In this document: positions 19,648 through 55,460 of the stretch, piece by piece | Layout of the letters: the number at the start of each line of letters is the position of its first letter | Position numbering within the stretch: position 1 is the stretch's first letter | Source of the DNA: an uncultured bacterium | Lineage (GTDB): Bacteria > Patescibacteriota > Patescibacteriia > Magasanikbacterales > GWA2-37-8 | DNA: 64,000 nt | NCBI GenBank assembly: GCA_937903605.1 | Contig: CALCZC010000025.1 | Coordinates: forward strand, 206,618 to 270,617 | Direction of reading: 5' to 3' | The notes under the pieces: model-generated | Databases searched by the model: none | Told to the model about the DNA's origin: nothing | Seen by the model: the letters and a program-made list of their open reading frames with translations, nothing else | Made by a program: the position numbers and the translations under genes

Positions 19648-19653
19648 AATAAA

Positions 19654-20688
19654 TTATATTTTTTTATTGCTACTGATATATTGTTTAGCAACTTCCTCGT
19701 CTATCAAACCTTGGCTGGAATAATTTTCCAAAACTTTTTCCATGGTAATCATACCGTCTTTGGCACCGGTTTGAATAGCAGACTTGATTTGATTAATATT
19801 GTTTTCTTTTATCAAATTGGCTACTGCCGGCGTATTAACAAAAATTTCTCGCACAGCTATTCGTCCGCCGCCTTTTTTTGGTAACAGATGTTGAGCAACT
19901 ACCCCACGCAATACCGAAGATAATTGGATGAGAATCTGACGTTGTTTACTACCATCAAAAACATCCACGATTCTTTCTACCGCTTCAGCCGCACTGTTGG
20001 TGTGTAAAGTGGAAAAAACCAAATGCCCGGTTTCCGCCGCTGTTAAAACAGTGGCGATAGTTTCCGGATCACGCATCTCACCGACAAATATAATATCCGG
20101 ATCTTGGCGCAATACATATTTGAGTGCGCTGGCAAAACTTTTGGTATCTACTCCGACTTCACGTTGTTCTATCAAACTTTTTTTATCTTTAAAAACAAAT
20201 TCTATTGGATCTTCAATGGTCACGATGTGTGCTTTCTTGGTTTTATTAATTTCTTCAATCATAGAAGCAATGGTACTAGACTTGCCACAACCGGTCGGAC
20301 CGGTAATCAAAACCAAACCATCATTGATATTGGTAAATTTCAAAATTGTTTCATCAAAACCAAGTTCTTGCGGAGTAGGAACTTCGCTTGGAATTATTCT
20401 CGCAGTTAGCCCAATTTTTCTGTCTTGACGATGTAAATTGATACGAAAACGAACTCCTTCTATCTCATAACCTATATCCAAATCTTTTTCTTCCAAAAAA
20501 CGACGTTTTTGTTCGGTGGTTAAAATAATAGATAAAACTTCTTCTAGTTCATCATTATCTATTTTTTCCTCTGAAATTTCTACCAGTTCTCCGTCAATCC
20601 GAAGCATTGGCAATTCTTCGCCAACCAAATGAATATCCGAAGCTTTTTTCTGTATCCCTTCCTTAAAAATTTTCTGCAAATTTATCAT
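19654..20688 (-). CDS. pilT: type IV pilus retraction ATPase PilT
   Basis: 344 aa; Walker A GPTGCGKSST; TLHTNSAAEAVERI; PilT-sized. Confidence 0.85.
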   Translation of the reverse strand: MINLQKIFKEGIQKKASDIHLVGEELPMLRIDGELVEISEEKIDNDELEEVLSIILTTEQKRRFLEEKDLDIGYEIEGVRFRINLHRQDRKIGLTARIIPSEVPTPQELGFDETILKFTNINDGLVLITGPTGCGKSSTIASMIEEINKTKKAHIVTIEDPIEFVFKDKKSLIEQREVGVDTKSFASALKYVLRQDPDIIFVGEMRDPETIATVLTAAETGHLVFSTLHTNSAAEAVERIVDVFDGSKQRQILIQLSSVLRGVVAQHLLPKKGGGRIAVREIFVNTPAVANLIKENNINQIKSAIQTGAKDGMITMEKVLENYSSQGLIDEEVAKQYISSNKKI

Positions 20689-20760
20689 AAAAATAAGTTG
20701 AAATTACCAAAAATATAGCTCGTTGTGAGCTCCCCGATATTATACCACTTCTACCCCCTC

Positions 20761-20789
20761 TTGAAAAGGGCGGAAAAGTGTGTTAAAAT
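20761..20789 (+). promoter_or_regulatory. sigma-70-like promoter TTGAAA-N17-TAAAAT upstream of tRNA-Pro(GGG)
   Basis: Hexamers with 17-nt spacer end 18 nt before the tRNA. Confidence 0.45.
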
Positions 20790-20807
20790 AGCCCGGAAGT
20801 TAAATTT

Positions 20808-20881
20808 CGGGCTATAGCGAAGTTGGCTATCGCGCATCCATGGGGTGGATGAGACCGTGAGTTCAAGTCTCACTAGCCCGA
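20808..20881 (+). tRNA. tRNA-Pro (anticodon GGG)
   Basis: CGGGCTATAGCGAAGTTGGCTATCGCGCATCCATGGGGTGGATGAGACCGTGAGTTCAAGTCTCACTAGCCCGA; anticodon loop ATGGGGT with G37. The track ORF 20751..21080(-) overlaps it and is spurious. Confidence 0.8.
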
Positions 20882-20892
20882 CTAATTCTTTT

Positions 20893-21150
20893 ATGAATAA
20901 ATTAAAAATACTACGAAAAAAGATAGATGGAATTGACACAAAAATCATTTCTTTATTATTGCAAAGAGAAAAAGAAGTAAAAAAGATTGCTGCGTATAAA
21001 AAAAGCCATAATTTGTCAGTGGTTGACAAACAAAGAGAAGCTGGTGTTTTGAAGAGAGCGATCAAGAAAAGTAAGTGCAAATTATCAAAAATATTTATAA
21101 AAGACTTGTTCCAAAGGATAATAAAATATTCACGAAAGTTGCAAAAATAA
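20893..21150 (+). CDS. chorismate mutase (AroQ class, CM_2)
   Basis: 85 aa from the ATG at 20893 (the track ORF starts inside the tRNA): LRKKIDGIDTKIISLLLQREKEVKKIAAYK...DKQREAGVLKR matches the AroQ helical signature. Confidence 0.55.
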   Translation: MNKLKILRKKIDGIDTKIISLLLQREKEVKKIAAYKKSHNLSVVDKQREAGVLKRAIKKSKCKLSKIFIKDLFQRIIKYSRKLQK

Positions 21151-21174
21151 AAAACACCAGATAGGTGTTTTTTG
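21150..21174 (+). terminator. intrinsic terminator ACACC-AGAT-AGGTGT followed by T6
   Basis: Hairpin and T-run right after the chorismate mutase stop. Confidence 0.55.
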
Positions 21175-21179
21175 TATAG

Positions 21180-21253
21180 TCGGGGTACCGGGACTCGAAC
21201 CCGGAACCTTACGCACCCGAAGCGTACGCCCTAGCCAATTAGGCCATACCCCG
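21180..21253 (-). tRNA. tRNA-Pro (anticodon CGG)
   Basis: Reverse complement CGGGGTATGGCCTAATTGGCTAGGGCGTACGCTTCGGGTGCGTAAGGTTCCGGGTTCGAGTCCCGGTACCCCGA; anticodon loop TTCGGGT. Confidence 0.75.
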
Positions 21254-21393
21254 AAAATAAAGCATGCTAATTATAAATCAAAAAAATTAAAAAGTAAACA
21301 TTGTTAAAAATCGCTAATTTTAGCGGTTTTTTGTTTATTTTTAAACAATCTTGCAATCTTTCAATCTTTCAATCTTGTAATTTTATCCTAGGG

Positions 21394-21422
21394 CTTGACA
21401 AAATCTTCAAAATATGCTATAC
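21394..21422 (+). promoter_or_regulatory. perfect sigma-70 promoter TTGACA-N17-TATACT driving the large ncRNA
   Basis: TTGACA 21394-21399, 17-nt spacer, TATACT 21417-21422. Confidence 0.7.
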
Positions 21423-21429
21423 TGTGCAG

Positions 21430-22262
21430 TCGCTCAAATTGACGAAAAGACCCCTGTGTCTTCAGTCAAATCGGCGAAAGTTCGTTTCAAAACACCAAAA
21501 CCCGCTCGCCAAGGAGGTTCAGATGAACCGTACGAGAGATCGACCGTAAATTTCCCGGTCCAAAACTGAGATCTTTTTTTTAAGAAAACGTCGCAGATCC
21601 AGTAGGACAAATCTCATCGGCAAAGTTCGGTTTTCCAGGACATGTTCCCGGAAGCCTTAACCTGAACCGCCCAATCGGCGCGCCAAACAGCGCAATAAAG
21701 CGCAGGAGGTGTAGGATGTCCAGCATCCGCGATGGTCCCAAGTAATACAATCGTAACTGAACAACCATCTACGAAAAAAGTTTTGATGTTCCGTTCCTCC
21801 CGCCGTCGCCGACGCCTAGAATGGCGCCCCGTGCCCCGGCTTTCGTGGCACTTTTCCGGCGGGTTAAACACGCGAAGGCTAAACGGCATGTCGACGAGGT
21901 TAGGGTCGAGAGATTTCGACCTGGGCTACGTTTTTTTGTACCTCGCGGCAAAGACCGTTTTGGCCCATATCCGGCGTCAGGTCAGCCTCTCTGTAACTTT
22001 TGGAAATGTGTTCCTATGTCCAAGTGACGAGGAGACACTTTCCACTTTCAAAAAAGTTAGAGAGGCTGACACGCCGAGCGAAAATTGCGGATAAACCGGA
22101 TCAGCTTAAAAAACCGGTGATCTCCGCACCAACGTCAAGGCGATTTCTAGGCTTCCGGATCGCCCACGGCTCATCTGCCGTGTACAGTGAAGTCACATTT
22201 TCCCCGGTCTGCGATCAACAACTGAGCGCTCAGTGTTGATTCGCAGCCGGGGCGTTTTTTTT
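21430..22262 (+). ncRNA. large (~0.83 kb) GC-rich structured non-coding RNA of unknown class, flanked by tRNA-Pro genes
   Basis: GC ~50% against ~33% background; only overlapping Arg-rich pseudo-ORFs on both strands; bounded by a consensus promoter and a strong terminator; many local and long-range helices; internal hairpin plus T8 at 21533-21580. Confidence 0.6.
22201..22262 (+). terminator. strong intrinsic terminator (~24-bp interrupted stem followed by T9)
   Basis: CCCCGGTCTGCGATCAACAACTGAGCG / CGCTCAGTGTTGATTCGCAGCCGGGG then CGTTTTTTTTT. Confidence 0.8.
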
Positions 22263-22342
22263 ACATACGAATAAATAGATACTAATATACAAATTGTACT
22301 AATGATACGAATGCTATACGAAAATTTATACGAATGAACAAA

Positions 22343-22417
22343 TTTTAGATTTATGATTTTTGATTTATGAATTACCGTTTTTGTCATTCTAAAATCTGCA
22401 ATCTAAAATCTGAAATT
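22343..22417 (+). repeat. ~75-bp AT-rich composite repeat, copy A (TTTAGATTTATGATTTTTGATTTATGAATTAC...TGTCATTCTAAAATCTGCAATCTAAAATCT)
   Basis: 7-bp periodicity; near-identical copies at 24216-24293, 26158-26234 (inverted) and 49671-49794. Confidence 0.7.
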
Positions 22418-22464
22418 AGTTAATCTTTCAATCTTTAAATCTTGTAATCTTTAAATTTTTTACC

Positions 22465-22493
22465 TTGCAATCTTGCAATTCATTTTATATAAT
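22465..22493 (+). promoter_or_regulatory. promoter TTGCAA-N17-TATAAT for the U32 peptidase gene (places the TSS within ~2 nt of the ATG; possibly leaderless)
   Basis: -10 ends 8 nt before ATG 22502. Confidence 0.45.
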
Positions 22494-22501
22494 TAATTCC
22501 T

Positions 22502-23725
22502 ATGAAACCAAAACAAACTCATAAACCCATCCTCCTCGCTCCCGTCCGAGACGAGGTCTCTTTTACCGCCGCTATTGATGCCGGAGCGGATGCGGTTTAT
22601 TTTGGTATTGGTGAACTAAATATGCGATTAAGCTCCCGTGGGATAAATTTGAAACAACTCCCCCGCTTTGTCAAAAAAGCTCATCAAAAAAATGTTTTGG
22701 TTTATATCGCTCTGAATGTGATTGTTTATGAAAATGAACTGGCGCGAGTAGAAAAAATCCTCAAACAAATCAAAAAATCCGGAGTTGATGCCGTGATAGT
22801 TTCAGATTTTGCTATTATCTCTCTTTGTCAAAAACTCAAGATTCCTTTTCATCTTTCCACTCAAGTTAATATCAGTAATAGCTCTGAAGTGAAATTTTTT
22901 GAACGTCTCGGCGCCAAAGCCGTAGTACTCGCGCGCGAATGTACTCTATCTCAAATCAAAGAGATAAAAAAGAAAAGTAAAATCAAAATAGAAGTTTTTG
23001 TTCACGGTGCGATGTGTGTCTCTGTTTCCGGTCGTTGTTATATGTCGGAATTTACTTCTTGCAAATCCGCCAACCGCGGGCAGTGTTTGCAACCTTGTCG
23101 TCGTGAATATGAAATCAGAGACACCCAAACCGGTGATGAACTCGTCATTGGCAAAGGTTATGTGATGAGTCCGAAAGATCTTTGCACTTTACAAATCCTA
23201 GATAAAGTCATTGCAACCGGCGTGGACATTTTAAAAATAGAAGGCCGTAGTCGATCTCCGGAATATATCAAAACCGTAGTATCTGCTTATCGCCAAGCCA
23301 TAGATGCTGTAGCTACTAAAAAGTTCAACAAAAAACTGACTGACGAACTAATACAAAAAGTTTCTGGGGTGTATAATCGCGGATTTTCTACCGGCTTTCT
23401 TTTTGGCGCACCTAGTAGTGAAGGTTGGGCGAGAATTTCCGGAACTGCATCTAAAATAAAAAAAGAACGCCTCGGATACGTGCGTAATTATTATAGCAAA
23501 AATAAAATTGGGGAAATTTATCTGGAAGCCAATACTCTAAAAGCTGGTGATAAAATTCAAGTAGAAGGTCCAACTACCGGTGTTATTGATTTTGTTATCC
23601 TAGAATTTTGGGTGGATGATAAACCAGCCAAGAGCGCTAAATTGAAAGATGCGATAACGTTTAAGTCGCCGGTTGTTTTGAGAAGGAAGGATAAAGCATA
23701 TAAAATTACAAGATTACAAGATTAA
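22502..23725 (+). CDS. peptidase U32 family protein
   Basis: 407 aa; N-terminal PVRDEVSFTAAIDAGADAVYFG and central EIFVHGAMCVSVSGRCYMS, typical of U32. Confidence 0.7.
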   Translation: MKPKQTHKPILLAPVRDEVSFTAAIDAGADAVYFGIGELNMRLSSRGINLKQLPRFVKKAHQKNVLVYIALNVIVYENELARVEKILKQIKKSGVDAVIVSDFAIISLCQKLKIPFHLSTQVNISNSSEVKFFERLGAKAVVLARECTLSQIKEIKKKSKIKIEVFVHGAMCVSVSGRCYMSEFTSCKSANRGQCLQPCRREYEIRDTQTGDELVIGKGYVMSPKDLCTLQILDKVIATGVDILKIEGRSRSPEYIKTVVSAYRQAIDAVATKKFNKKLTDELIQKVSGVYNRGFSTGFLFGAPSSEGWARISGTASKIKKERLGYVRNYYSKNKIGEIYLEANTLKAGDKIQVEGPTTGVIDFVILEFWVDDKPAKSAKLKDAITFKSPVVLRRKDKAYKITRLQD

Positions 23726-23859
23726 AAGATTGTAAGATTGGACAATTTTAGATTTTTGATTTTTGATTTTAGATTGGTAATTGTCCGCCAAAGGCGGATC
23801 CGCCCGTGGCGGAAAAATTAATTAAAAATTGTAAAATTAAAAATTTAAAATTCTAATTA

Positions 23860-23888
23860 AAAAACTGCTCTTACGAGCAGTTTTTTAA
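23860..23888. terminator. bidirectional intrinsic terminator AAAAACTGCTCTTACGAGCAGTTTTTT between the convergent U32 and rplU genes
   Basis: GCTC-TTAC-GAGC hairpin with A-run on one side and T-run on the other. Confidence 0.65.
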
Positions 23889-24215
23889 TTAGTTGATTTT
23901 TACTTTGGTAAACGGTTGACGATGTCCGTAAGCTTTGTGGTATCTGACTTTTCGTTTGAATTTTTCCACAAGAATCTTTTTGGCACGGCCTTGCATTTCT
24001 ACACTGGCTTCTACGGTCATTTCCAAATATGGAGTACCGATTTTAACATCAGAACCGTCATCTTTGGCAGTCAAAAGGACTTTGTCAAAAACAACTTTCT
24101 CACCTTCTTTAACGGCAAGTTTTTCAATTTTAATGGCATCGCCGGTTTTTACCAAATATTGTTTACCGCCGGTTTCAATAACTGCGATCATAGTTTTGTG
24201 ATTAAATTTATCCAA
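23889..24215 (-). CDS. rplU: 50S ribosomal protein L21 (bL21)
   Basis: MIAVIETGGKQYLVKTGD... is the canonical L21 N-terminus; the true start is probably the internal Met at 24191. Confidence 0.9.
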   Translation of the reverse strand: MDKFNHKTMIAVIETGGKQYLVKTGDAIKIEKLAVKEGEKVVFDKVLLTAKDDGSDVKIGTPYLEMTVEASVEMQGRAKKILVEKFKRKVRYHKAYGHRQPFTKVKIN

Positions 24216-24293
24216 TTTTAGATTTATGATTTTTGATTTATGAATTACAGTTTTTTTGTCATTCTAAAATCTGCATTCTAAAATCTAAAATTC
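24216..24293 (+). repeat. ~75-bp AT-rich composite repeat, copy B (in the rplU 5' leader)
   Basis: Same sequence family as 22343-22417. Confidence 0.7.
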
Positions 24294-43931: not shown

Positions 43932-43957
43932 ATGTATAATCCGAATAACAATTTAAA

Positions 43958-44434
43958 GATTTAAAGATTGAAAGATTTAAAGATTGTTAAATTGTGTAAC
44001 TATTTTTTGTAATGTAAATTATCCAACAAATAACTACGAAAATTCGATAAATGGGTAGAAATCTTGTATATTTCTTCAATTAAATTTTCTGCTGTTTTAT
44101 TTTCTATATAATTATTATCCAATAAAATATATAGAATCGTTCTGACTTCTCCAGCTGAACCTTTGGCAATATTTATAAAATTAGCAAATTCTTTATTTGA
44201 ACTTCTTTCAAAACCTTCAGCTATATTTAAAGAGATTGAATAGGTCGCTCTTTTTAATTGATCACAGATAGAATAGTCCTTTTTTAATTTTTGATTATCG
44301 TCAATCAACTTATAAATATTAGCAACAAATTTTCTTGAAATTTGCCAAATTGGAATATCTTCAAATTTTTTATACTGCATACCCTCCCTTATTAATTAAA
44401 TTTTTAATCTTTAAATCTTTCAATCTTTAAATCT
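43958..44434 (-). mobile_element. cassette with perfect ~29-bp inverted repeats bracketing a second four-helix-bundle protein gene
   Basis: GATTTAAAGATTGAAAGATTTAAAGATT at 43958-43987; its exact reverse complement AATCTTTAAATCTTTCAATCTTTAAATC at 44406-44434. Confidence 0.6.
44000..44380 (-). CDS. four helix bundle protein (TIGR02436; 23S rRNA IVS protein family), second copy
   Basis: 126 aa; ...ATYSISLNIAEGFER...GSAGEVRTILY... family signature. Confidence 0.8.
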   Translation of the reverse strand: MQYKKFEDIPIWQISRKFVANIYKLIDDNQKLKKDYSICDQLKRATYSISLNIAEGFERSSNKEFANFINIAKGSAGEVRTILYILLDNNYIENKTAENLIEEIYKISTHLSNFRSYLLDNLHYKK

Positions 44435-44441
44435 TGCAATT

Positions 44442-46478
44442 TTACTCGCCCGCTGGCGTAGCCATAATCTGTGCAATAATATTATTTTCATTTTCTGTAA
44501 AAGTTACTCCGTTTTGCTGTGCTAATTGCAAAATATTTAAAGCCTTTTCATTTTCTCCGGCGATTTTATAAACATAAGCCAAACGCCAATAGCTTTCACC
44601 AATTTTAGCATTATCTTTTATCGCTCCGTCAAGCAATTTGATAGCGTCGTTAAATTTACCCATCTGCATCTGCAACATAGAAAGCGAATAAATCAACTGC
44701 TGACGGCGCGGTGATTTATTCAGCGCATCTTTGAGATAATTTTCCGCTTCCGCCATTTTTTGTGGATCATTATTAAGTTGTGCCATCACTTGCGCCATTT
44801 GCGACAGAGTCATCTGATTGCGAATGTCTAGGGGGTGAAGATCTGTATTTTTATGCAGTTCCGTAAAACAAACATCTAGGATTTTTTTTAAGAAATCTTT
44901 TTGTGCTTGTTGATTTTGCATCACGGTATAAGCGATTTGCACTACGGAACGAGAGATATCACTCCTGATATCATCAATATGCGGAGATTGAAAATGCAAT
45001 GCATCCTCCACTACACTCAACGCTATGGTCGGATTTTGATTGAGCGCTTTGATGGCAGTGAGAGATTTACTATTAGCACGAGCGGGTTGAAGATTAAAAA
45101 TTAAGATAAAGATTAAGACCAAAATTCCAGCTACAGAAACCGCACCAAAAGAAATGTTTTTATTAACTGAAGCAACTTTTTCAGTATTTTCATCCGGAAG
45201 CAAAGTAAGACGAGAAACCATAGCCAGCACGAACATAAAATAAATATATGAAGTCAAGTTTTCAAATACTGTAATATTTTCCACCAAATGCGAAATCACA
45301 TAGACTGATAAAACAATAAACAAAATCAAATCAATGTGTTTTTTGCGATACGCGATAGTAAGCGAAAAGAAAGCAATAGCAAAAAGTAGTAGATATACCA
45401 AAATACCAAATGTCCCCTGTACTGCCATAGTGTTGAGTACTATGTTGTGCGCATTATCAAACCAAGTTTCACCATATCCATGATCAAGAGATAGTGGGTT
45501 GTAATGAGTATTAAAAACATAAAAATAGTTGTTTGGTCCCCAACCAAAAACCGGTCTATCTTGCCAACCTTGCAGAGCTATTTTCCAAGCAATCCAACGA
45601 GGAGAAGCTTTGATATCAGAATATGAAGTATTGATAGCACGACCAACAGCTGGAATATTTCGGACAAAATCAGTTTGACGATTCAGATATAAAACTCCGA
45701 ATAACAAGGCAAAAGCTATAAGAGACCCCCAGAGATAAATTTTGGCTTTTGGATTATTTCTAAGTGAAACTGCTAATAAAAAGATGGTAAGCGGAATAGC
45801 TATACCCAAAGCCAAGATATCACCACGGGTACCGGAGAAAAAAATGTTGGCAAAAGCTAACAAAAACATCCCGCCCAAAATCCAACGCCAATACTGCTCC
45901 TTTTCCTTGATAAAAAGCAAAATCGCCATTGACGATAAAAACAAAGCATAACCACCCACATAAATAGGGTTCCCCAATGTACTGGCGACACGATCAGAAC
46001 CTTGGTTGAGTAGTAAATCCGGGTTGCCAACTTGTAAAAACCCGACAAACATCACGCCCATACCGGCGGTCAGGAAAACTTTTAAAGCCAAGCGGTAATC
46101 CGCCCAGGTCTGGAGTACCGCACCGACAATGTAAAAATAAATTACATAATGAGTAATAGTAAAAAACCCGAGCATGCGTTCGTGGTTATCCCAAAAACTA
46201 TGATAAGGGTCTACACCCAAAAAAGTAGAAAGTCCGAAACTGAGCCAAAACAAAAATACAGCGATATTTACCGGGGTAAATTTAGGTTTAAATTCTTTAA
46301 AATCTAAAATCAAAAGTAAACTATAAAGCCCAAGCATCACCATGACTATGGAACGGAAGGCCAAAATCTTTGGCACGATGAAGGGAAAAATAAATGAGCT
46401 TGGAAGTACGATAAGCGGAACGAAAAAACTGGCGTAAATTAGCAGTTTTATCGCCAAAATTACTTTGTCTTTAGACAT
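44442..46478 (-). CDS. O-antigen ligase (Wzy_C) family membrane protein with C-terminal TPR repeats
   Basis: 678 aa; ~12 TM N-terminal half; C-terminal ~250 aa of TPR-like helices. Confidence 0.55.
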   Translation of the reverse strand: MSKDKVILAIKLLIYASFFVPLIVLPSSFIFPFIVPKILAFRSIVMVMLGLYSLLLILDFKEFKPKFTPVNIAVFLFWLSFGLSTFLGVDPYHSFWDNHERMLGFFTITHYVIYFYIVGAVLQTWADYRLALKVFLTAGMGVMFVGFLQVGNPDLLLNQGSDRVASTLGNPIYVGGYALFLSSMAILLFIKEKEQYWRWILGGMFLLAFANIFFSGTRGDILALGIAIPLTIFLLAVSLRNNPKAKIYLWGSLIAFALLFGVLYLNRQTDFVRNIPAVGRAINTSYSDIKASPRWIAWKIALQGWQDRPVFGWGPNNYFYVFNTHYNPLSLDHGYGETWFDNAHNIVLNTMAVQGTFGILVYLLLFAIAFFSLTIAYRKKHIDLILFIVLSVYVISHLVENITVFENLTSYIYFMFVLAMVSRLTLLPDENTEKVASVNKNISFGAVSVAGILVLIFILIFNLQPARANSKSLTAIKALNQNPTIALSVVEDALHFQSPHIDDIRSDISRSVVQIAYTVMQNQQAQKDFLKKILDVCFTELHKNTDLHPLDIRNQMTLSQMAQVMAQLNNDPQKMAEAENYLKDALNKSPRRQQLIYSLSMLQMQMGKFNDAIKLLDGAIKDNAKIGESYWRLAYVYKIAGENEKALNILQLAQQNGVTFTENENNIIAQIMATPAGE

Positions 46479-46589: not shown

Positions 46590-46689
46590 TAGCATAATCT
46601 GATATTTCAGATTTATGATTTCAGATTGATGATTTCAGATTTATGATTAATAAATATTGGATATTAGAATATTAGATATTAAAATAATA

Positions 46690-48168: not shown

Positions 48169-48229
48169 AAAAAATTTATAAATTTCAAGATTTAAAGATT
48201 AAAAGATTGAAAGATTTTGATATTGGATA

Positions 48230-49653: not shown

Positions 49654-49670
49654 AATCTTTATAAAAAATA

Positions 49671-49794
49671 TTTTAGATTTATGATTTATGATTTAAGAAT
49701 TATGAATTATGTAACAAAATACAAAATATTACAAAATTACAAAAAAGATAAGTTGTCCTGTCATTCTAAAATCTGCATTCTAAAATCTAAAATT
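49671..49794 (+). repeat. AT-rich composite repeat, copy D (with a ~45-bp internal insertion)
   Basis: TTTTAGATTTATGATTTATG...TGTCATTCTAAAATCTGCATTCTAAAATCTAAAATTC. Confidence 0.65.
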
Positions 49795-53703: not shown

Positions 53704-53732
53704 TTGACAAAACGGATCGAAGATGTTATGTT
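53704..53732 (+). promoter_or_regulatory. candidate promoter TTGACA-N17-TATGTT for the repeat-protein gene
   Basis: Perfect -35, weak -10; GGAGGTG RBS before the ATG at 53772. Confidence 0.35.
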
Positions 53733-53771
53733 GAAAATAACCAGTTCTTTACACAAACCAAACGGAGGTGT

Positions 53772-54386
53772 GTGATGGTCAGGACTTTTACGGGTTATCA
53801 AACCTTTGAAGAAGCCTCGGACGCCTTTGCGGAAATTATCAAAAAGTATGGGATTGACAAAAGCAAGATCGGCACTGGTTTTCCTTTTTATCAGCTGTAT
53901 TACAAAGAAGATCCGAAATTACCTTCCAACCCACACATTCGCTACGGCAATGTTTGGAAAGAAAAAGATAGTTGGATCGGTTTTTTCAAAAAGAACAAAG
54001 AAGAAATGGGATACTACACTTTTGAAGAAGCTGTGCAGGCCATCCAAAAACTGCTTTTTGTCCCCAAAACTCCGGCGCAATACAGGCAGTGGCGCAAAAA
54101 AGATCCACGGCTACCGAGTAACCCTAGAAAGCATTATTCGGATTTTGAAGACCGCGGCGGATGGGATGCTCTTTTACTGATCGCTGAAATTTATATAAAC
54201 AAAAACCCTCGTTATTACGAGAGTGCGGAAAAAGCCAGACGAGCGGTTCACATCCTGGGCATTGTCAACGAAGAAGATTATCGGTTATCTTGTTGGCAGG
54301 ATTCGTGTTTACCGCCAAATCTGCGGGAATATTACGGAAGCTCCGCTTTTTTGAAAGCGTTTGGTTCAGGCAATAAATTCTCTTGA
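53772..54386 (+). CDS. hypothetical protein with two tandem ~70-aa repeats carrying a F-EA...DP(K/R)LPSNP...Y motif
   Basis: YQTFEEASDAF...KEDPKLPSNPHIRYGNVW...WIGFF and YTFEEAVQAI...KKDPRLPSNPRKHYSDF...GWDALL. Confidence 0.5.
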   Translation: MMVRTFTGYQTFEEASDAFAEIIKKYGIDKSKIGTGFPFYQLYYKEDPKLPSNPHIRYGNVWKEKDSWIGFFKKNKEEMGYYTFEEAVQAIQKLLFVPKTPAQYRQWRKKDPRLPSNPRKHYSDFEDRGGWDALLLIAEIYINKNPRYYESAEKARRAVHILGIVNEEDYRLSCWQDSCLPPNLREYYGSSAFLKAFGSGNKFS

Positions 54387-55253: not shown

Positions 55254-55258
55254 AATTT

Positions 55259-55390
55259 CTATTTTCCACAATCACATCCACAACCGCAAGTTTCTTCTTC
55301 TTTTTCTTCACATTTGCAGTCTGGACCACAGTCACAACCTTCTTTACCACATTCACAAGGTTCTTGTGGTTTTAATTCATCTAAGTTCAT
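55259..55390 (-). CDS. small cysteine-rich metallothionein-like protein (43 aa; absent from the ORF track)
   Basis: Minus-strand translation MNLDELKPQEPCECGKEGCDCGPDCKCEEKEEETCGCGCDCGK*; 12 Cys in CxC and CxCxC arrays; own consensus promoter and terminator. Confidence 0.45.
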   Translation of the reverse strand: MNLDELKPQEPCECGKEGCDCGPDCKCEEKEEETCGCGCDCGK

Positions 55391-55431
55391 AGTTTTTGTT
55401 TACGGCTACTAAAAGTAGCTACTCGGGGTAT

Positions 55432-55460
55432 ATTATAGCACATTTTAGCCTTTTTGTCAA
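55432..55460 (-). promoter_or_regulatory. perfect sigma-70 promoter TTGACA-N17-TATAAT (minus strand) for the Cys-rich small gene
   Basis: Reverse complement reads TTGACAAAAAGGCTAAAATGTGCTATAAT; a CCCCGC-TGA-GCGGGG hairpin sits immediately upstream. Confidence 0.6.

Follow-up and report, generated by a model that had tools for sequence, protein, structure and literature searches.

Large structured bacterial RNAs are usually regarded as purely non-coding, and arrest peptides are, to our knowledge, so far known from upstream open reading frames (ORFs) whose role is to turn on the protein gene that follows. The locus described here spans 21424-22262 on the + strand of a 64,000-nucleotide stretch (hereafter the window) of contig CALCZC010000025.1, whose U32 protein, encoded beside the locus, places it in Candidatus Magasanikbacteria (candidate phyla radiation (CPR)/Patescibacteria), which are ultra-small bacteria. 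If our reading is right, it unites arrest-type mini-ORFs with an orphan structured RNA, in a genome otherwise without Shine-Dalgarno use. IRAGP is the core on which SecM arrest critically depends, and ribosomes stall at the motifs RAGP, RAPP, RGPP, and RAPG with a Pro codon occupying the A site (PMC12992588; PMC10987492). The Arg of the arrest motif is irreplaceable, replacement of the Ala by Asp is tolerated in part, SecM relatives contain RADP, RASP, and RGSP, and the motif alone is usually insufficient without N-terminal context (PMC12992588; PMC10987492). We propose, at a probability of about 0.4, that the locus encodes a clade-specific dual-function RNA, in which ribosomes are captured, and probably also stalled, at 5' mini-ORFs of this type that precede an autonomous 3' effector.

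The locus is a structured RNA gene, predicted from its signals to be transcribed independently from its own promoter to its own intrinsic terminator. An earlier note on this DNA had pointed to a GC rise, a consensus promoter, and the strongest terminator of the window, and all three are borne out. The GC content is 0.51 over 21424-22262 and 0.35 in the rest of the window. The sigma-70-type promoter (21395..21423, + strand) consists of TTGACA (21395-21400), a 17-nt spacer, and TATACT (21418-21423) with an extended -10 TG. It matches the consensus at 11/12 positions, is the top of 15 promoter-like sites in 20500-23000, and is kept (CTTGACAAAA..AAAATRTGYTATAYT) in all homologues (11/11 versions); transcription would start at about 21428-21430. 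The terminator, likewise conserved across versions, is formed by a hairpin at 22202-22252 (-34.5 kcal/mol) and a U-run at 22255-22262, which is T8 (U8) and not the T9 given earlier. No other hairpin plus U-run in the window is as strong (runner-up -22 kcal/mol), and the U-tract lies 3' of the hairpin on the + strand only. Directly upstream of the promoter, a hairpin between A and T runs (21306..21331, + strand) looks like a terminator or insulator against upstream transcription; this AAAAATCGCTAA-TTAGCG-TTTTT hairpin also precedes the promoter in the homologous loci L003, L005, L007, and L022. Just past the terminator, at 22265-22345, ATACGAA is repeated four times; the repeats are found at this place in L021 and L024 as well and may be an array to which a protein binds.

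All six frames of the locus are closed, with TAA, TAG, and TGA present in all frames. The four ORFs listed in the earlier note exist and have no Pfam match, and the longest ORFs in the locus are equally unmatched in Pfam and not conserved; an alternative genetic code and a pseudogene were rejected on these grounds. A protein conserved in one frame, which the note had named as a finding that would speak against an RNA, is not seen, as no long ORF is common to the homologues. Its description 'ORF-free' is not quite right, since it overlooked two conserved mini-ORFs at 21523-21549 and 21716-21745. The locus folds more stably than its dinucleotide shuffles (z = -6.4, + strand; z = -9.3, - strand). 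Among all 4227 models of Rfam 15, only transfer RNAs (tRNAs) reach the gathering threshold in the window, and nothing meaningful appears on 21200-22500 even at E<=10. On eight related loci, too, tRNAs were all that matched; the RNAs of L003, L005, L007, and L008 have no match at the gathering threshold, nor do those of L005, L021, and L022 at E<=1, and ARAGORN finds no transfer-messenger RNA (tmRNA), in line with the note's view that this is no obvious housekeeping RNA.

Contigs of relatives were gathered via U32 homologues and one DNA-pattern scan each of genome and metagenome collections. Syntenic homologues occur in ~10 related Candidatus Magasanikbacteria genomes or metagenome contigs, and all clade members with at least 78% U32 identity have a consensus promoter, a GC-rich stretch without a long ORF, and a strong terminator at the same position. 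The versions alignable with the window are L008 (2237-3022), L015 (3274-3950, - strand), L016 (6691-7367), L017 (2936-3615), L020 (2218-2895), L007 (602-1302), L003 (=L012; 3970-4607), and L021 (~75-349), which at 275 nt is the shortest RNA. In L005/L006 (4031-4642) and L022 (419-1030) only the promoter can be aligned, and the RNAs of L005 and L022 still fold well (z = -7.1 and -4.5). The RNA is absent in the more distant relatives L023, L026, and L027, whose U32 proteins are 58-62% identical. L026 and L027 (58-59%) keep tRNA-Pro(CGG) beside the U32 gene, whereas L023 does not. Since two of these three relatives without the RNA retain the tRNA-Pro/U32 adjacency, the RNA gene is a clade-specific insertion into a conserved spacer. 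The tRNA adjacency emphasized earlier is thus real and reflects this insertion, whereas nesting between two tRNA-Pro genes is not found: both genes (20808-20882, + strand; 21179-21253, - strand) are upstream, and the locus lies between tRNA-Pro and the U32 peptidase gene (22502-23725). Nothing similar was found in viral contigs or the phage database, and covariance model R1 of the 3' core finds no second copy in the window. Four of the six genome-collection matches to the 3' motif (in Kiritimatiellae, Verrucomicrobia, Desulfobulbaceae, and Electronema) were dismissed as chance matches inside protein genes, and so were the metagenome matches L014 and L018 as chance.

The RNA is built from modules, all on the + strand. 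The 5' extension D0 (21424..21700) is shared in the alignment by the window and L008 only. It is followed by D1 (21700..21960), which is multi-branched, has helices at 21796-21863 and 21903-21922, and is missing from L021, and by D2 (21971..22078), a long irregular hairpin of ~108 nt that has a shortened form in L021. The conserved 3' core D3 (22076..22262) contains P1 (22087-22127), P2 (22139-22164) with a conserved UUCCGG loop, P3 (22165-22182), a single-stranded AGUGAA (22186-22192), and, at its end, the terminator hairpin with U8; the UUCCGG loop and AAGUGAA are its conserved unpaired motifs. D2 and D3 together form a 3' core of ~190-290 nt common to 9/11 versions, and the 5' modules differ by lineage. 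L021 consists of D2 and D3 only, and L008 has an additional hairpin between them. The indels among homologues are not multiples of three.

The secondary structure is backed by compensatory changes beyond controls. From eight full-length versions, RNAalifold predicts a structure of 123 pairs, of which 25 show compensatory changes. For D3, the model R1 (22076-22262) finds nine homologues, which score 115-215 bits; 93% of cells are paired, and 12 pairs are compensatory, against 2.5±1.3 in shuffled and 1-4 in slid controls. In D1 and D2, 92.5% of cells are paired, with 18 compensatory pairs against 7.4±1.8 (shuffled) and 2-8 (slid). For D3 and for D1 with D2 alike, 0/500 shuffles matched the observed number of compensatory pairs or the covariation score. 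When 8 homologues were folded separately by minimum free energy, the terminator, the inner P1 hairpin, and P3 came out in 8/8, the P1 outer stem in 7/8, and P2 in 6/8. Within D2, nine pairs of helices 10-12 carry compensatory changes. The internal helices of D1 covary, whereas its closing helices are 96-100% paired and invariant; these long-range helices join the Shine-Dalgarno site of mini-ORF2 and GGUCC to 21921-21949, including the anti-Shine-Dalgarno-like GUACCUC. Two further readings were rejected: a T-box or other tRNA-binding role of D3, which has no UGGN bulge and no Rfam T-box score, and internal attenuators (the hairpin 21903-21922 with U7 at 21931; U8 at 21574), neither of which is conserved and whose spacing is poor.

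Much of the structure proposed in the earlier note is therefore recovered, with several of its coordinates off by 1-2 nt. The long-range pairing is present at 21981-22008/22043-22070 and covaries, and so does the GGTCGA-GAGATT-TCGACC hairpin (21903-21922). The GGATG/CATCC hairpin exists as well and encloses the start codon of mini-ORF2. The call of a large ornate non-coding RNA stands as far as a structured RNA gene is concerned, and has to be narrowed to an RNA of a narrow clade with a ~190-290-nt shared core that is partly coding. The likening to GOLLD and ROOL does not hold, since the element was found only in this narrow clade and owes its 0.84 kb to lineage-specific 5' modules. The comparisons proposed there gave no match to an Rfam covariance model, homologues, and covariation above controls. 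The locus was rightly singled out as a candidate undescribed element: with comparative support for its structure, the RNA as predicted here is a previously undescribed family, without a match among the 4227 families of Rfam 15, and is found only in a narrow Magasanikbacteria clade.

Every version but the shortest (L021) carries ORFs of 8-13 codons behind a canonical Shine-Dalgarno site; the peptides below are followed by a stop codon. In the window, mini-ORF1 (21523-21549, + strand) encodes MNRTRDRP behind GGAGGT at 21513-21518 (+ strand), and its start codon lies inside a GGUUC/GAACC hairpin, which shows a compensatory change to GGUGC/GCACC. The same type is represented by MNRTRDAP in L008 and by MHRIRDDP in L022, which is otherwise unalignable. 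These peptides follow the pattern M-[NH]-R-x-R-D-x-P, with synonymous changes at R3 (CGT/CGC/CGA), D6 (GAT/GAC), and P8 (CCG/CCC). Mini-ORF2 (21716-21745, + strand) encodes MSSIRDGPK; its Shine-Dalgarno site GGAGGT (21705-21710, + strand) is placed 5 nt upstream of the AUG, which is enclosed in a hairpin, GGATG-N5-CATCC (21714-21728, + strand). The homologues of mini-ORF2 are MKNIRAGP (L008), MIIIRAGP (L003), MRKNIRDGP (L007), and MS[SL]IRDGPQLFL (L015, L016, L017, and L020). Their codons vary between CGC and CGT for Arg, GGT and GGC for Gly, and CCC and CCG for Pro, and the loop of the start hairpin changes length in 3-nt steps only. The divergent L005 RNA encodes MPNARAAPQILKI behind GGAGGC, with the AUG in a 5-bp hairpin, in addition to a degenerate MNLPRDQTVC. 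The mini-ORF peptides share R-[A/D]-x-P, placed at the C-terminal end or close to it, with invariant Arg and Pro; L003 and L008 alone have IRAGP, the exact SecM core, and the other forms are RDGP, RDRP, RDAP, RDDP, and RAAP. The spacing between the Shine-Dalgarno site and the AUG is always a canonical 4-7 nt, and all Pro codons are CCC or CCG. Because the Arg, Asp, and Pro codons change synonymously and the motif is retained in RNAs that cannot be aligned, the comparison indicates, in a small sample, that selection acts on the peptides encoded by the mini-ORFs.

The Shine-Dalgarno sites set the mini-ORFs apart from the protein genes of the window. Among the 44 window ORFs of at least ~225 amino acids, with start codons assigned mechanically, none (0/44) has GGAG, GAGG, or AGGA within 17 nt of the start, so the mini-ORF sites are exceptional in this genome. 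Leaders of the long ORFs are AU-rich (e.g. 22485-22501 and 19648-19664), and a TATAAT box is often found just 8-15 nt before the ATG. The pattern suggests that translation starts without Shine-Dalgarno sites and that many messenger RNAs (mRNAs) are leaderless or have a short leader. Only two full GGAGGT sites in the window are followed by an ORF of <=20 codons, and they belong to mini-ORF1 and mini-ORF2; in 154 kb of related DNA, GGAGG-N3-9-ATG with a short ORF is nearly exclusive to these mini-ORFs. Elsewhere in the window, the protein gene 53704-54386 (+ strand) has a perfect GGAGGT 8 nt before its ATG (53775), and its product contains integrase repeat units (Pfam INT_rpt), which is why it may be mobile or acquired DNA.

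In the dual-function reading that we prefer, the 5' part of the RNA would consist of one or two ribosome-capture modules, each with GGAGGU, an AUG in a 5-bp hairpin, and an 8-13-codon ORF, and D2 and D3, which fold independently, would serve as the effector by offering a surface to which a protein or another RNA binds. The Shine-Dalgarno site, AUG, and GGUCC are paired in the consensus fold, and a ribosome would therefore load mainly during RNA synthesis. On the nascent RNA, it would pause or arrest with its P site at the pre-Pro codon and its A site occupied by Pro-tRNA, as at SecM/RAPP-type motifs. The parked ribosome would prevent D1 from closing, which forgoes 17-26 kcal/mol of structure, and could act as a 5' roadblock or sensor setting the lifetime or abundance of the RNA. 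After its departure, the start hairpin and the distal anti-Shine-Dalgarno-like strand would bury the Shine-Dalgarno site and the AUG. The mini-ORF devices may thus protect or meter the RNA, or report the translation state. The figure of 17-26 kcal/mol comes from constrained folding of seven homologues, in which the mini-ORF2 zone was forced to be single-stranded; the folds of D2 and D3 remained unchanged.

A more specific form of this idea seems doubtful to us: the RNA might be a dedicated ribosome trap or sensor in a CPR lineage whose own genes have given up Shine-Dalgarno-led initiation. It would keep one or two of the rare canonical Shine-Dalgarno sites of the window, each leading into a SecM-like (IRAGP/R-D-x-P) mini-ORF. 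Highly expressed, it would park ribosomes, or a Shine-Dalgarno-reading subset of them, at a Pro codon that the neighbouring tRNA-Pro genes read, and would thereby couple the translation state (Pro-tRNA supply, TrhP-like wobble modification, rescue factors) to the abundance or activity of the effector RNA. If true, it would represent a class of arrest-peptide device without a downstream gene.

Because of the literature on IRAGP/RAPP-type motifs, it is reasonable to expect arrest by the mini-ORFs, and we put its chances at even. In common with SecM and the RAPP-like peptides (SecM, ApdA, ApdP, ApcA, YwcI), the mini-ORF peptides end R-A/D-x-P, which copies the SecM core exactly in L003 and L008 only, and belong to a Shine-Dalgarno-led ORF within RNA structure that a parked ribosome would open. 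Unlike these, the mini-ORFs have neither a signal or transmembrane segment for force release nor a regulated ORF (secA, yidC, or other) downstream in the transcript, as the next gene lies past the terminator and has its own promoter. They are also embedded in an otherwise non-coding RNA, and their arrest is a prediction.

Several points weigh against the dual-function reading. The majority of proteins with RAPP-like motifs do not stall (PMC12992588; PMC10987492). ORFs of 8-13 codons are too short for the tunnel contacts needed by arrest peptides of the SecM/ApdA type: just 3-5 residues precede the motif, and they are freely variable, so no tunnel-contacting segment is present. Moreover, RDGP, RDRP, RDDP, and RAAP are outside the stalling motifs proven in the literature, and ribosomes in a lineage without Shine-Dalgarno sites might fail to recognise those of the mini-ORFs. 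No part of the RNA is universal, since L021 has no mini-ORF and L005 and L022 have neither D2 nor D3. The idea that stalling remodels the 3' domain was rejected, as D2 and D3 were unchanged under constrained folding. On the structural side, the ~7-9 distinct sequences are closely related and hold few independent substitution events, the D3 alignment was fitted to its model, so that pair counts lean towards the modelled structure, and the helices that bury the Shine-Dalgarno site, AUG, and GGUCC are invariant, which makes covariation uninformative there.

A first alternative is a purely non-coding RNA. GGAGGU, the AUG hairpin, and GGUCC would then be structural strands of an internal helix resembling a Shine-Dalgarno/anti-Shine-Dalgarno duplex, the ORFs would be untranslated, and the peptide-like conservation would be a by-product of constraints on the RNA. 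The three elements are indeed paired in 96-100% of the cells of the consensus fold, the Ile codon of mini-ORF2 falls within the CAUCC stem, the genome's own genes use no Shine-Dalgarno site, and L021 works without a mini-ORF. We nevertheless consider this account unlikely, as the positions that vary are third positions of Arg, Asp, Gly, and Pro codons, with first and second positions fixed even where they are unpaired in the model. In addition, L022 and L005 retain the Shine-Dalgarno site, AUG, and R-[AD]-x-P though nothing else can be aligned, the 4-7 nt spacing is canonical throughout, and the hairpin loop changes length in steps of 3 nt. Alternatively, the RNA could be a cis-acting leader of the TrhP-like U32 gene, in which the CCC/CCG Pro codon reports proline decoding and sets terminator read-through: it always stands beside tRNA-Pro(GGG/CGG) and immediately in front of that gene, in the same orientation. 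The Pro codons of the mini-ORFs are those read by the neighbouring tRNAs, and the locus contains, together with a U32 protein whose best NCBIfam match is TrhP, a chorismate mutase, the maker of prephenate. Such a leader is nonetheless improbable. The terminator has -34.5 kcal/mol and U8, no conserved antiterminator was found, and in every locus the U32 gene has its own conserved promoter. Another promoter-RNA-terminator unit (L003, L005) or a 311-amino-acid gene (L024) can intervene, distant relatives keep tRNA-Pro beside U32 without the RNA, and the TrhP match is under the family cut-off (214 vs 534 bits).

Leader peptides of inducible resistance genes typically have 8-9-codon ORFs, a strong Shine-Dalgarno site, and a start codon in a hairpin, and the pattern for macrolide stalling is '+x+'. 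The layout of the mini-ORFs fits this description, and the ORF1-type peptides carry R-x-R (RTR, RIR, RDR), so that the RNA could be of the erm, cat, or ABCF-leader type, stalling ribosomes only with a ribosome-binding small molecule and sensing drugs or ligands for a response encoded elsewhere. With no resistance gene or other regulated ORF after the RNA, no +x+ in the ORF2-type peptides, and no evident alternative terminator/antiterminator pair, we regard this as very unlikely. The weakest candidate, in our estimate highly improbable, is a known RNA that has diverged too far (RNase P, signal recognition particle RNA, 6S, tmRNA, GOLLD, ROOL, OLE, HEARO, raiA, group I/II intron, or T-box) or a decayed protein gene acquired horizontally. 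The high GC content in an AT-rich genome and the position beside tRNA genes would suit either origin, but neither agrees with the lack of Rfam matches on the window region and the homologous loci, the lack of phage or viral matches, and the single copy in the window. Closed frames, indels that are not multiples of three, covarying helices, and an L021 version of only 275 nt also argue against both.

The neighbourhood of the RNA gene has features of its own. The best NCBIfam match of the U32 protein, the prephenate-dependent tRNA U34 hydroxylase TrhP, is below the family cut-off (214 vs 534 bits), and the gene has in every locus its own conserved TTGAC(A/T)-17-TATAAT promoter, which ends 9-10 nt before the ATG. 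A stand-alone chorismate mutase gene (20893-21150) is located between the two tRNA-Pro genes, near the U32 gene, and may serve as a prephenate source for tRNA wobble modification and not for amino-acid synthesis. In L003 (4629-4940) and L005 (4705-4965), a second unit composed of a consensus promoter, a ~260-300-nt RNA, and a terminator is inserted between the RNA and U32; Rfam has no match for it, and the window lacks a counterpart. In L024, a gene of 311 amino acids without a Pfam match (137-1130) fills the spacer before the U32 gene and has at its end a copy of the terminator hairpin of the RNA, so that the terminator appears to have been reused. Partial or interrupted tRNA-Pro copies are found beside intact ones in L003 (3606-3710), L007 (480-550), and L026 (3150-3320), which points to a tRNA locus that was rearranged repeatedly or received intron-like insertions.

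The intergenic spacers are full of AT-rich tandem repeats with a period of 7, 8, or 14 (AATCTTTC, TTTATGA, ATTTTAGATTTATG, CATTCTAAAATCTG), for example at 21346-21381, 22342-22479, 23705-23863, 24215-24286, 43951-43985, 44396-44444, 46604-46686, 48170-48217, and 49670-49788; AATCTTNNAATCTT occurs 30 times against 2.1 expected. Flanking 8-nt CAATCTT repeats were considered as recombination or mobile-element ends of the RNA gene and rejected, as such repeats are present in many spacers of the genome. Within 55258-55460 (- strand) of the window, a near-identical consensus promoter (TTGACAAAA..TGTGCTATAAT) precedes a Cys-rich ORF of 43 amino acids (MNLDELKPQEPCECGKEGCDCGPDCKCEEKEEETCGCGCDCGK), whose product looks like a metallothionein. 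This promoter, at 55460 (- strand), was considered as the start of a second RNA, which was rejected since it drives that ORF instead.

The locus adds a new RNA family for annotation and poses a simple question: can an 8-codon IRAGP peptide stall ribosomes? It also offers a handle on translation start and ribosome monitoring in unculturable CPR bacteria, and a view of RNA evolution in which a structured RNA gene swaps modules between closely related species.

Among the known systems, attenuators of the trpL type are a poor fit, as the terminator lies ~500 nt from ORF2, occupying the ORF2 zone leaves the 3' folds unchanged, and the homologues do not preserve a terminator at the internal U-run (21931). 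The features of a dual-function small RNA (sRNA) are present, namely a transcript predicted from its signals to be independent and a small ORF that, in a small sample, appears to be selected at the peptide level. Like the attenuator-derived or dual-function sRNAs (rnTrpL/peTrpL of Sinorhizobium; SgrS/SgrT, RNAIII/hld, SR1/SR1P), the predicted RNA is a separate transcript with an intrinsic terminator that combines a tiny, here presumably translated, ORF with a structured part predicted to act by itself. It differs from them in having no attenuated downstream operon, in carrying an arrest-type motif in place of regulatory codons or a functional small protein, and in being much larger (0.6-0.84 kb). 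With the Bacillus 5' stabilisers (ermC leader, cryIIIA STAB-SD, aprE leader), it shares a strong 5' Shine-Dalgarno site, which may or may not lead into a short stalling ORF; a ribosome bound there could guard the RNA beyond it against decay that depends on the 5' end. The Bacillus elements act on mRNAs, whereas the protected body here would be non-coding RNA, and ORF2 of the window is ~290 nt from the 5' end. GOLLD, ROOL, OLE, raiA, and HEARO are likewise GC-rich, structured, longer than 0.5 kb, equipped with their own promoter and terminator, and near tRNA genes. In contrast to them, the present RNA matches none of their covariance models, has a narrow distribution, conserves only a 190-290-nt core, contains mini-ORFs predicted to be translated, and has no prophage context. 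The closest parallel to its Shine-Dalgarno sites is rpsU of Flavobacterium johnsoniae, where a Shine-Dalgarno-free genome also has one locus with a perfect GGAGGU at canonical spacing, implying special ribosome recruitment; there the site autoregulates a ribosomal protein gene, whereas here it precedes mini-ORFs on an RNA gene.

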